From IMG/VR virus record IMGVR_UViG_3300046811_000086, positions 1-31,079 of that record: a stretch of DNA of 31,079 bases; one strand, written 5' to 3'. Numbering within the stretch: position 1 is the first letter of the stretch; each line of letters opens with the position of its first letter. The notes under the pieces were generated by a model. It saw only the letters and a program-made list of their open reading frames with translations. It did not search any database and was not told the origin of the DNA. Source of the stretch: a virus. Taxonomy: Duplodnaviria; Caudoviricetes. Shown here piece after piece: positions 1 through 13,394 of the stretch. A program made the position numbers and the translations under genes.

Positions 1-842
1 AACGCGATATCGTCGTCGGCGCCGAACGCCGCGGCGTCCGCCGGCACGCGCGTCTGGAAAATCTCCGCGAACGGAATCGGGGCATCGGTGCGCAGGCGGA
101 TCAACGACCGCGCCGTCTCGAAGCGCGAGGGCTCACCCGAGAAAAAGTCGATCAACGATTTCCCGATGGCCGGCGTGAGCGACGCCTCGCCGCATTCAAT
201 CGCCGCCCACAGATCCTCAAGCGTGCCGTAGGTTCCGAGCAACTTCGCCGCGGTCACGGCGCCAATCCGATCCGCGCCCTGGACGTTGTCGCTTTTGTCG
301 CCGACGAGGGTTAAAAAATCGCAGAACTGAGTCGGGTGGACCCCGAACTTTTCGACCACTGCCGCCGCGTCATAGGTGCGTTCGGTGGCGGTGCCGAGCG
401 CCGGCCGAAAGACGTGCACGCGGTCGCAGACGAGCTGTAGTAAATCTTTGTCGGCCGAGATGATCAGCACGTCGGCGCCGTCGCTGTCGGGCGGCTGCGC
501 GGCGGCGACCGCCGTCGCGATCAAGTCGTCCGCTTCAAAACCGCGCGCCGCCCAGATCGGAAACCCGTCACCGCGCAGGATGTCGATCGCGACGTTGCCC
601 TGGTGATACAAGGCCGCATCGCGTTCGGCGGGTCGGTTCGCTTTGTAGTCCGTGCTGATCTCCGCGCGAAACGATTTGCCGCTATCACAACAAATCGCGA
701 CATGCGGATGGGCGCTCGCGAGCGCGCGAATTTTCGCGACGACCTGCGTGCTCGTGGCATTCGGGTCGGAGTCCGTGCTCGCGAGCGCCCACGTCGGATG
801 CAGGATCGAACTGAAATCAAGCAACACCAAGCGATCACTCAT
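1..842 (-). CDS. 5'-3' exonuclease (PolA N-terminal / FEN-like); 3' end runs off the window
   Basis: Manually translated from ATG at 842 (absent from the ORF track because no stop lies in the window): MSDRLVLLDFSSILHP...DYKANRP...GFEADDLIAT...IISADKDLLQLV...LVGDKSDNVQGADRIGAVTAAKLL. Contains the YKANR, EADD, DKD and GDxSDN-H3TH motifs. Confidence 0.92.
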   Translation of the reverse strand, partial: MSDRLVLLDFSSILHPTWALASTDSDPNATSTQVVAKIRALASAHPHVAICCDSGKSFRAEISTDYKANRPAERDAALYHQGNVAIDILRGDGFPIWAARGFEADDLIATAVAAAQPPDSDGADVLIISADKDLLQLVCDRVHVFRPALGTATERTYDAAAVVEKFGVHPTQFCDFLTLVGDKSDNVQGADRIGAVTAAKLLGTYGTLEDLWAAIECGEASLTPAIGKSLIDFFSGEPSRFETARSLIRLRTDAPIPFAEIFQTRVPADAAAFGADDDIA

Positions 843-848
843 AGGTCA

Positions 849-1302
849 ATCCAATCGAGCCACACCTTGCCGTGCCCTTCCATAGCGAGCCTTACCTCGC
901 CTCGCCATGCCGCGCCCAACCCCGCCTCACCTACTCCATGCCCTACCAGTCCCGAGCCATCCCCGCCACATCCAGCCTTGCCGTGCCGAGCCATACCCAA
1001 CCTCACCCGACCAGACCGCGCCGCCGCCACACCGGGCCACACCCGACCACGCCCAACAACTCCACATCCGGCCTTACCCCGCCTGACCAAAACTCACCAC
1101 GCCACGCCGCGCCAGACCGCGCCCAACCGGACCGCACCCGACATCGGCCCGCCTCGCCATTCCAGGGCACGCCATGCCAAAGCTCGCCAAGGCCGTGCCA
1201 CGCCTGACCACTCAGCGCCCGTCCAGACCTCGCCCCACCCTCACCCCGCCCTGCCCCGCCGCACCTAGCCGAACCACGGCTAACCTTGCCGAACCAGACC
1301 TG
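849..1302 (-). repeat. Pentameric GGY-NN repeat array 1 (about 90 units), putative non-coding guide-RNA array downstream of the Cas7-like gene
   Basis: The plus strand parses as RCC-nn units, e.g. gcc ac acc tt gcc gt gcc ct. In-phase runs: 849-933, 935-954, 965-1024, 1026-1190 (33 units), 1192-1241 and 1243-1302, separated by 1-nt slips. The triplet is near-constant and the dinucleotide is variable. Strand is inferred from operon direction. Confidence 0.9.
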
Positions 1303-1306
1303 ATGA

Positions 1307-1954
1307 CTAATCCGGCACGACGATCTCGAACTGTTGAATCGCGAACCGTCCGTATGTCGGCCTGAAATCCGCCAGCCCGATCAACCGCCCCGCATTCACA
1401 AGCACATCCTGCAAGGCATCGGGTGGGATGTATTCCGGCAGATTCACCATCAACTGAATTTCCACGGACCATCCCGTGCGCATCGCGGGCCGGACGCGCG
1501 TCACACCGTTGCGCTGAATCATCACGCGCCGCCGATCTTCGTAATCCCAATCGCGGGCACCGAGCGAGGCCAGCGGCGTCAGGCACACAACGCCCGCCTT
1601 AAAGAGATCCATCGCGCTCTTCCTGGGTGACCGCGGATCCTGACGAAACTTCGCGGCATGGATCACCGCCTGCCGCAGATACTCACCAGGAAGCGCCAAT
1701 TCGCCGGCGTCGTCGCGATAGACGTAACTCTCGAGGTCATCGGACTTCTTCGCCTTCGATCCCTTCGCGGCCCGCGCCTTCGTCGCAACGCCTTCAACAT
1801 TCCAGCGATGGAAGAGGAGATCAGCGACGCCGACGATGCGCGCGGACGCCACATACGGGAGCGCATATTCGATGGCCGCCTTCCCGCCGTTCGTCGTCAT
1901 CGGACCAATCGCAATCACTTCGCTTCGTGCTACGCTGCTCGCAGTCGGTGTCAT
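1307..1954 (-). CDS. Solo Cas7/RAMP-like RNA-binding protein (Vipr-like), 215 aa
   Basis: RAMP hallmarks by eye: N-terminal strand RIVGVADLLFH, LALPGEYLRQAV (compare the Cas7/Csm3 YIPGSSLKGALR motif), RVRP..GWSVEIQL and a C-terminal Gly-rich loop AGRLIGLADFRPTYGRF. AGGAG RBS lies upstream of ATG 1954. Confidence 0.75.
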   Translation of the reverse strand: MTPTASSVARSEVIAIGPMTTNGGKAAIEYALPYVASARIVGVADLLFHRWNVEGVATKARAAKGSKAKKSDDLESYVYRDDAGELALPGEYLRQAVIHAAKFRQDPRSPRKSAMDLFKAGVVCLTPLASLGARDWDYEDRRRVMIQRNGVTRVRPAMRTGWSVEIQLMVNLPEYIPPDALQDVLVNAGRLIGLADFRPTYGRFAIQQFEIVVPD

Positions 1955-1981
1955 GTGCTCTCCTCATGTGATGCTGTTGAG

Positions 1982-2006
1982 AGGGTCGCGTGCTGAGCGC
2001 GGCCCT
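1982..2006. other. Stem-loop between array 2 and the Cas7-like gene RBS
   Basis: AGGGTCGCG (1982-1990) pairs with CGCGGCCCT (1998-2006): 9-bp stem with one G-T pair (C-A on the minus strand) and a 7-nt loop. Confidence 0.5.
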
Positions 2007-2013
2007 TTCCCCA

Positions 2014-2204
2014 ATCCAACCTCGCCGAACCAAACCAAACCCGACCTGTCCTAGCCTTACCCGACCTCACCCTGCCATACCGTGCCGCGCCTCGCCCCAC
2101 CGGACCCAAACCTCGCCCTACCACTACCACGCCATGCCTCGCATTGCCGCGCCATGCCCTCACCCGGCCAAACCCTGCCTCGCCCCGCCCGGCCTCGCCC
2201 CGCC
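2014..2204 (-). repeat. Pentameric GGY-NN repeat array 2 (about 38 units), putative guide RNA upstream of the Cas7-like gene
   Basis: Plus strand: atc ca acc tc gcc ga acc aa acc aa acc cg acc tg tcc ta gcc tt ... gcc tc gcc cc gcc. In-phase runs: 2014-2108 (19 units), 2110-2124, 2126-2160 and 2162-2204. Confidence 0.9.
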
Positions 2205-2232
2205 GCTGAGCTCTGAATCTCTGTCTACGTCC

Positions 2233-2460
2233 TCATGGCCGATCGAACTCCGGAATATCAATCGACCGATTGGCGTAGAGGTGATCGCTTAAAACGTGAA
2301 ACGTGATCACGGTCGCTGCCCGCGGATCCCCGCGGAGCAGGCCAGCCGCGAGCAGCTTGCTGATGACGTCACTGCTGATGAACTTGATCCGCTCGCCGCG
2401 TTCGCCGGCGCGGGCGTGGTCGTGCGCTTCCGCCTGGCGGGTTTCGTCTTCCTGCCTCAC
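2233..2460 (-). CDS. Hypothetical early protein, 75 aa
   Basis: GTG start overlaps the stop of 2457-2663 (GTGA coupling). Array 2 decodes in this ORF's codon frame to a similar peptide, which independently supports the frame. Confidence 0.65.
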   Translation of the reverse strand: MRQEDETRQAEAHDHARAGERGERIKFISSDVISKLLAAGLLRGDPRAATVITFHVLSDHLYANRSIDIPEFDRP

Positions 2461-12276: not shown

Positions 12277-13394
12277 TACGGCTGCCCCATCGTGGTGTAG
12301 TGGTTGCCGATGACCGTCGCGCCGAGTTGTTGATAGTGCGCCACCTGGCCGCTGGGGATATCCTGCTCGGTGCCGTCAGGCGCCTTCATTCGCACGGTCG
12401 CGCTCTGCTGCGTGCCACCGGGCGGTTGCACTGGCGGGACGACCGACGCGGCGGGACCGCTGCTCGGTTGCGGCGTCGGCGGCGCGACGCTCGAGCGCGC
12501 CGGGAAGCCGCCCGAGGCGCTCGGCTGCGCCATGTATTGCGCCTCGCGGGAGTTGGCCTCGAGACCCGCCTGGTTGTAGGGCGCCAACCTGCCGAGATAG
12601 TCCCCGTATTGATTGCGGTTGTAGGTCTGCTCTTCCTGTGCCACCTTCAGCGCAGCATCGAACTGCGCCTGCTGCTGTTTCAGCGCCTCTTCGCTTGCAC
12701 CAGCTTGCTTGTTGGCCGCGTAGATATTGCCGAAGACGTTCGCAAGGGCCGGGATGGTGGTGTCCTTGCCCAGTAGTTTCGTCAGCCACGAGGTGGCGCC
12801 GCCACCCCCGCCGCTGTTCGCCGCGATGTCTGCGAGAGTGTTCCCTGCGGCGCCGACGTTGGGAATGGCACTGCCGCTCGCGAACAAGTCCTCGACCGTT
12901 GTCGCGGCGGCGGCCGTGCCGGCTCCCGCGCCGCCCGCCCCAGCCCCCTCCACGGCTGGTCCGAGGAATTCGGTCGATCCCCAGCCCCCCGTCGCGGCTG
13001 TTCCACCAGTGCCGGCACCGCCGCCGCCCAAGGCGGCACCAATCGCCGGCGCCGCGATCCCGGCACCGACGCCGCCCGCGGCGGCCACGCCGATCACATT
13101 CGCCCAATTCGTCGGGTTCTCCCACTGGCCCGTTTGCCAGTTCCACTTCATGCCCTGCTTGAAAAAGCCCTTATCCTGGCCGGCGCGGTCGCCCGATTGC
13201 GTGCCCGTCCCCGTGAACGTCCCGCTCGAATCGAACCACTCCTTGGGGTAATAAGTTTTCTGGCCGCGAATCATGCGCCAGTAGCGGCCCTGCGCGTCCT
13301 GATTGAAGTCGCGCAGGCTCAGGGGATGGCCCAGATTGGCGAGCCCTTCCGTCGTGAGCGGCGTGAGCCCCCACGGTTCCGTGTTCGTTGCCAT
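12276..13394 (-). CDS. Putative ejection/pilot protein, Gly/Ala-rich, 372 aa
   Basis: Gly/Ala-rich hydrophobic stretch and a QQQAQFD..Q..Y.....LAPYNQAG motif; TAATG coupling to the next gene. Confidence 0.6.
   Translation of the reverse strand: MATNTEPWGLTPLTTEGLANLGHPLSLRDFNQDAQGRYWRMIRGQKTYYPKEWFDSSGTFTGTGTQSGDRAGQDKGFFKQGMKWNWQTGQWENPTNWANVIGVAAAGGVGAGIAAPAIGAALGGGGAGTGGTAATGGWGSTEFLGPAVEGAGAGGAGAGTAAAATTVEDLFASGSAIPNVGAAGNTLADIAANSGGGGGATSWLTKLLGKDTTIPALANVFGNIYAANKQAGASEEALKQQQAQFDAALKVAQEEQTYNRNQYGDYLGRLAPYNQAGLEANSREAQYMAQPSASGGFPARSSVAPPTPQPSSGPAASVVPPVQPPGGTQQSATVRMKAPDGTEQDIPSGQVAHYQQLGATVIGNHYTTMGQP

Follow-up and report, generated by a model that had tools for sequence, protein, structure and literature searches.

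A new VIPR locus in a temperate phage with outermost guides that fit kin more closely than self in the flanking genes

How can a phage keep guides against the very genes that flank its guide arrays and still spare its own copies of them? The question is raised by the window, the whole 31,079-nucleotide stretch of phage DNA analysed here (IMG/VR record IMGVR_UViG_3300046811_000086). A first-pass annotation had answered it with silent recoding: if wobble bases are skipped, only leucine, serine and arginine codons permit a synonymous escape, and the phage's own genes were held to carry the non-matching variant at such sites, so that relatives would be hit and self would not.

The locus, its Vipr protein and its guides

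The window phage is temperate, with a P22-like portal and coat, an integrase and a pair of HTH regulators among its Pfam and PHROG matches. A complete record of 43 kb (G004) is almost identical to the window, and the 24 runs listed with the window stretch are all soil or rhizosphere metagenomes, with no RNA dataset among the listed holders. The minus strand carries, in order, a 75-aa ORF (2460-2233), a first repeat array (array A, 2204-2012), vipr (1954-1307), a second array (array B, 1300-847) and a 5'-3' exonuclease gene from 842 (Pfam PF02739 and PF01367, phrog_107). The exonuclease gene occupies positions 3 to 842 and runs past the window edge, leaving the first 280 of about 526 residues in the window; it is present at full length in P0124 and G004. 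The 75-aa ORF is conserved in related phages (19 proteins found, self included); it gave no Pfam and no PHROG hit, and no member of its family was found in GTDB genomes. Between the arrays lies vipr alone, with no accessory vap gene there; such a gene is typical of VIPR systems but not universal. No Rfam match was obtained in 700-2600. Further upstream a sigma-70-like site (10/12) at 3593-3564 on the minus strand, which precedes a 79-aa HTH gene, is a candidate promoter of the early operon containing the VIPR locus.

The 215-aa vipr product (P0001), for which 7245 homologs were found, recovers the SUSP1 Vipr (PDB 36pp), Vipr being a RAMP-like protein, in a phmmer search (E=2.1e-7, residues 133-207 against 116-188). 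Its R155 and D196-F197-R198 align with R138 and D177-W178-R179 of SUSP1, respectively the thumb arginine and the G-loop triplet, whose roles are described in bioRxiv 10.64898/2026.04.26.720927. P0001 belongs to no Pfam family and the SUSP1 Vipr is its sole PDB match, so no nuclease domain was found. In other VIPR systems Vipr is reported to bind each GGY while the NN bases pair with DNA, the third base being skipped and transcription repressed (bioRxiv 10.64898/2026.04.26.720920, 10.64898/2026.04.26.720927). The two arrays, both on the vipr strand, together hold 128 GGY/NN pentamer units, of which 38 in four phase segments make up array A and 90 in five phase segments, separated by single extra bases, make up array B.

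When each array segment was scanned with skips of 0-3 against the window only, the sole comparison made for skips of 0, 2 and 3, nothing significant emerged under the 1-nt skip. The exonuclease segment matched at 21/34 with a shuffle P of 0.16, and the match to the 75-aa ORF was not even the best whole-window hit, so that on the window alone (P=0.16 or worse) the guide-to-gene matches could pass for chance. Relatives refute that reading, the probability of which we put at practically nil. Units 1-9 of array A match the ORF of a sister phage (L048/L052) at 18/18 bases, one of the best hits when 159 segments were compared with 1.4 Mb, and units 10-16 match the ORF of another relative (L193) at 14/14 in exact register; the 16 units thus span codons 19-34 of the ORF family. 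This guide (2124-2204, minus strand) matches in the sense orientation and consists of 9 + 7 units across one 6-nt unit. The last array-B guide (857-926, minus strand) has 14 units, runs antisense to codons 3-16 of the exonuclease and is compatible at codons 5-16 with the consensus of 120 homologs. Profile scans from which homologs of at least 85% identity were excluded, and in which codon classes were equally weighted, gave 47 bits (z=18.6) for the array-A guide and 40 bits (z=12.9) for the exonuclease guide, as against shuffle maxima of 20-24 bits; at z of at least 5, zero false hits are expected in 250 tests. Once relatives are used both guide-to-gene assignments are real at the level of sequence. 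In both, the target decodes under a 1-nt skip that falls on the wobble base, and the self-match lies below 80%; by these features and its Vipr homolog the window locus is a VIPR locus.

An exact full-length target of the exonuclease guide had no match in viral and metagenome contigs, and 11 units of the ORF guide had no exact match in viral contigs. For 98 of the 128 units (within 847-1300 and 2012-2122) a search of the window, of G001-G005 and of the other loci yielded no target. Single extra bases produce 6-nt units at 2164-2159, 2128-2123 and 2112-2107 and at four places in array B; as one footprint stays in register across 2164-2159, such units need not mark guide boundaries. In array A the additional base that follows unit 16 equals the wobble base of the L193 codon. 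A near-identical copy of the exonuclease guide is present in L048/L052: between window 857-926 and L048:5918-5991 five scaffold bases differ and only one NN base, and a contig of run X12 has the same scaffold variants. In run X17 the beginning of array A and codon 24 of the ORF are joined on one contig (window 2199-2392), the short side of which has 28 bases and which may be an artefact.

Own and related alleles at the two footprints

The guide's footprint on the phage's own exonuclease (795-836, minus strand, codons 3-16) matches at 20/28 bases (71%), and that of the best and closest outside relative (L195) at 24/28. Self differs silently at Leu7 and Ser11 and by amino acid at Arg4, Leu8 and Leu14; its Leu8 is found in 1 of 120 homologs and its Leu14 in 5 of 120. 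The claimed codons are as the first-pass annotation gave them, with TTG at Leu7 (824-822), AGT at Ser11 (812-810) and, in ORF 2233-2460, CGG at Arg24 (2391-2389), and the decoded guides do read CT, TC and AG at these three places. The guide's codon class is found in 19 of 22 homologs at Leu7 and likewise in 19 of 22 at Ser11, so that both own codons use classes rare in the family and are more telling than Arg24; had neither been swapped, the guide would match the exonuclease at 23/28 (82%). From pairing geometry, the swap at Leu7 should leave the antisense guide with a G-T wobble pair, a mild mismatch, and that at Ser11 with a double mismatch. Codon 7 encodes leucine in 116 of 120 homologs, yet it is TTG in the window, GTG in L048 and ATG in L002, and only these three occur in contigs of four runs. 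Since the valine codon stands on one contig beside a near-identical array B, escape at codon 7 need not be silent. AGT at Ser11 also occurs in L002, which is without the exonuclease guide. Self is not the poorest match among exonucleases: of 15 homologs six match better and five worse, and distant homologs match no better than self.

On the 75-aa ORF the own footprint (2359-2406, minus strand, codons 19-34) matches at 21/32 bases (66%), the lowest of 10 alleles, whereas seven of the nine others reach 26-28/32, the best relatives standing at 28/32. Here self shows one silent swap (Arg24) and seven amino-acid differences. Codon 24 is CGN in 9 of the 10 distinct alleles and AGA in L048 only, and of the 490 arginines encoded by 26 window genes 28 use AGR. 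CGG at Arg24 is therefore the family default and uninformative, and the AG of the guide is the sister phage's rare codon. The window and L048 ORFs are identical at 64 of 69 positions over codons 1-23 and at 89 of 156 thereafter, which places the footprint across a probable crossover. The window allele is a poor match to the ORF-directed guide of L002 too (18/30).

Taken together the two window footprints hold 13 mismatched units, 10 non-synonymous and three silent. The 10 non-synonymous units, which the first-pass annotation had omitted, contribute 15 of the 19 mismatched bases and the swaps four. A general preference of the own genes for the non-matching variant is not confirmed, as only three of the seven Leu/Ser/Arg sites are swapped, and Leu5 (TTG), Ser12 (TCG), Arg21 (CGC) and Ser34 (AGC) in the same footprints match. 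Among these seven sites 3.4 swaps are expected from genome codon usage (P=0.81) as from own-gene usage (P=0.78), and 2.4 from homologs (P=0.43). The appearance of all three codon families carries no information, being forced by the genetic code, as the annotation itself said. Its caveat on AT-rich codons near gene starts has little weight, because TTR makes up 10 of 43 leucines in codons 2-20 and 109 of 596 overall. The two target genes show no gene-wide enrichment in TTR, AGY or AGR relative to other window genes (P 0.26-0.91). The proposal that the guides hit relatives and not self is, in contrast, likely right to judge from the alignments, in which the relatives' homologs are matched and self falls below the 80% cut.

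Silent swaps across loci and competing explanations

The suggested enrichment check across homologous loci was run on the 75 carriers with arrays, whose 5389 units were each scanned against profiles of the carrier's own genes. It yielded 13 footprints in 9 of the 75 carriers, two of them representing one guide on two paralogs, with 82 matching units, 49 non-synonymous and 10 silent; swaps are thus not the main route. Dropped as non-independent were the exonuclease 3-16 guide as it occurs in L048 and an L237 guide where it recurs in L204, L207 and L212; also dropped were four footprints whose z did not exceed 4.0 and, in G004, repeats of the window guide, and an L002 guide that matches the exonuclease near codons 27-33 was missed by the profile scan and is uncounted. 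Swaps occupy 10 of 19 sites, against 8.1 expected by own-gene usage (P=0.22) and 6.3 by homologs (P=0.028). Where the guide reads CT, TC or CG, a subset picked post hoc, swaps occur at 6 of 12 sites, with 3.2 (P=0.06) or 2.05 (P=0.006) expected. Relative to the best-matching relative and stratified by gene, 7 of 15 are swapped versus 3.7 expected (P=0.044), and without the weakest footprint (L044) 5 of 13 versus 3.05 (P=0.16). What survives of the enrichment claim is a weak excess of swaps, at most twofold (P 0.03-0.2), which is not established. Pooled Fisher tests (7/15 against 60/407, P=0.004; 9/19 against 50/283) were set aside as the background rates of the genes differ; the 9/19 count moreover includes the guide-matching Leu5 and enters a shared guide twice.

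Amino-acid differences were counted likewise. Departures from a consensus of at least 75% number 7 of 21 inside the window footprints and 19 of 209 outside (P=0.004), or 6 of 21 inside when Phe10, which matches the guide, is left out (P=0.016). Across loci such departures are not enriched (9/46 against 77/480, P=0.33; 55 against 47.3 expected, P=0.096). If self-matching guides were filtered out, mismatches of every kind would become more frequent. One locus stands apart: at L044:9953-10620 (array from 10602), vipr of the carrier itself bears a 10-unit footprint (z=4.3) that is protein-compatible at all units and differs only by three Leu/Arg class swaps. This is the best case for the silent-swap idea.

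We propose, at a probability of about 0.65, that the two outermost guides, which match kin alleles of the flanking genes better than self, silence kin and spare self, the own alleles differing mainly by amino-acid changes. The outermost guides would act on the exonuclease and the 75-aa ORF, two early genes, in co-infecting or resident kin; by analogy with other VIPR systems, Vipr would coat the guide RNA, read two bases, skip one and repress transcription. A match of 66-71% would presumably be low enough to spare self, and a guide would persist only where its match to the linked own allele is poor from the outset or turns poor. Escape may come from any mismatch at codon positions 1-2, so that six-codon swaps would be used where a residue is nearly invariant (Leu7, Ser11) and form one minor route among the mismatches. 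Tight linkage would keep the guide together with the resistant allele through recombination. One short footprint of L019 matches self at 12/12 and counts against self-sparing. L002 shares most of the differing residues but has neither guide, its arrays being entirely different, and the guides of L048 revealed no reciprocal targeting of the window phage outside the shared exonuclease.

Some of these observations would also fit own alleles that drifted or escaped the guides of rival phages, the non-matching guides having been acquired later with no selection by the phage's own guides. L002 has the same ORF codons 24-28 along with Ser11, Phe10 and Leu14, without these guides, the window ORF allele matches the L002 guide poorly as well, and the window and L002 have wholly different arrays even though their Vipr proteins are 99% identical. 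This history is a serious possibility, if short of a probable one: it leaves unexplained why two phages that differ in Vipr type have both retained the exonuclease guide, and it still requires that self-matching guides be filtered out. Dated alleles would be needed to separate it from the silencing of kin with sparing of self. Recoding of the own genes at Leu/Ser/Arg codons, with the proteins unchanged, is unlikely as the main mechanism. It draws on the family-rare codons at Leu7 and Ser11, which bring the exonuclease match from 82% down to 71%, on the post hoc subset with half of its sites swapped and on the L044 footprint; these have to be set against the three swaps where 3.4 are expected, the small share of mismatched bases, the default codon at Arg24, the presence of AGT at Ser11 in the guide-less L002, target genes unenriched in the relevant codons, and the mildness of a G-T wobble at Leu7. 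The first-pass idea of silent self-recoding, a minor contributor, is partly supported at Leu7 and Ser11 and not supported at Arg24. We consider very improbable its alternative, that partial pairing tunes the phage's own early genes. Both footprints do lie in genes adjoining the arrays, one over the first exonuclease codons; against such autoregulation, however, the longest perfect run on the exonuclease is two units, the five perfect units on the ORF lie at the 5' end of the guide, whereas pairing in the described structures starts from the 3' end (bioRxiv 10.64898/2026.04.26.720927), and relatives match better than self.

Flanking genes, sister phages and known systems

Every footprint with z of at least 4.2 lies in a gene no more than 130 nt from its own array, those of L019 (two) and L044 being uninformative on this point as only vipr was profiled there. 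For the five footprints in carriers whose neighbours had not been sought out (L010, the L207 group, L210 and, twice, L211), the chance of a flanking position is about 0.006 by codon share, an estimate that ignores the deeper profiles near the cassette and for which the loci were flanks of 6-10 kb. These positions suggest that guides target genes directly flanking the array. Guides of L204, L207, L210, L211, L212 and L237 match families of array-flanking genes, and one footprint in this group has a DPPY consensus, which we take to be a DNA methyltransferase motif. Elsewhere ten successive units of the L045 array (from 3354) perfectly match a gene near 12500 of the VIPR-bearing contig L016.

The insertion site itself varies among relatives. 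In L195 the ORF and the exonuclease are 348 bp apart with no array. In L048 (L048:3570-6000; also L052), whose exonuclease is 98.6% identical to that of the window, the same site is occupied by another Vipr type together with one additional gene and 4-nt separators, although the last guide is almost the same; L197 has a different cassette again. Six-codon escape, if real, shows best in the target and not in self. The L048 ORF (L048:3342-3572) uses AGR for 4 of 9 arginines, as against 5 of 154 in five other L048 ORFs (P=0.0005) and 5 of 72 in the other alleles (P=0.007), and TTR for 4 of 10 leucines against 19 of 158 (P=0.03), all three being post hoc comparisons. This allele mismatches the L002 guide at an arginine via AGG, a possible silent escape in the target, and no L048 guide against its own ORF was found. 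We tentatively suggest, without regarding it as probable, that VIPR cassettes may be nuclease-free, RNA-programmed marker-exclusion elements, whose edge guides silence the flanking alleles of kin while the linked resistant allele travels along. The resulting arms race would be fought at codon positions 1-2, with Leu/Ser/Arg swaps as the sole silent move, the L048 ORF allele as an escapee and the window guide (AG, TT) as the counter-move.

As far as its sequence goes the locus is a new VIPR locus, and the assignment of its two guides to kin is well supported. Already in print are wobble skipping, the targeting of related elements, the lack of self-hits at 80% and low self-match as autoimmunity avoidance. 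The 80% cut is used bioinformatically in bioRxiv 10.64898/2026.04.26.720920, where self-hits are absent at that level and the word "synonymous" concerns the wobble base only. According to bioRxiv 10.64898/2026.10.15.759431 guides against vrRNA and vipr have a lower self-match, read there as autoimmunity avoidance, and escape requires amino-acid-determining changes; "leucine" and "arginine" are absent from its main text. Neither "homing" nor "exonuclease" occurs in the main texts of these two preprints, the supplementary tables of which may already list flanking-gene targets, and we found no further VIPR literature on self-avoidance. In the published view wobble skipping leaves a target no silent escape. 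The present locus gives natural triplets of guide, target and self in coding genes, which show the form of escape, here for the most part a conservative change of amino acid; six-codon swaps may offer a genuine but narrow loophole. The same triplets define a direct test of VIPR mismatch tolerance. The flanking-gene pattern, if it held in an unbiased sample, would hint at how cassettes spread among related phages and where guides originate.

The locus resembles the VIPR of SUSP1 and the type II system of P. fulva, as described in bioRxiv 10.64898/2026.04.26.720920 and.720927, in its Vipr homolog with aligned thumb and G-loop residues, in GGY/NN arrays that flank vipr on both sides with a 1-nt skip in the wobble register, and in targets on either strand with a self-match below 80%. 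It differs from them in that no accessory gene lies between the arrays, one footprint crosses a 6-nt unit, and the assigned targets are kin alleles of flanking genes and not a satellite or a lysogeny regulator. Like the guides of bioRxiv 10.64898/2026.10.15.759431, those of the window are aimed at the homologous sequence of relatives and match self less well. In that system, as described there, the target avoided in self is the vrRNA locus, which is non-coding, or else vipr has been lost from the carrier, whereas the window targets are protein-coding genes that the carrier keeps, and the kind of codon change therefore matters. The free-standing homing endonucleases of T-even phages and their marker exclusion (PMC2988022) offer a further parallel: there too an element is aimed at a related phage near its own insertion site, and here one relative (L195) lacks the cassette, while among sister phages one cassette is exchanged for another. 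As with a homing endonuclease, the target predicted from sequence lies near the insertion site in relatives and the own allele is unmatched. Unlike a homing endonuclease, the VIPR element is RNA-guided and programmable, and as Vipr shows no nuclease domain the expected outcome is silencing and not cutting.
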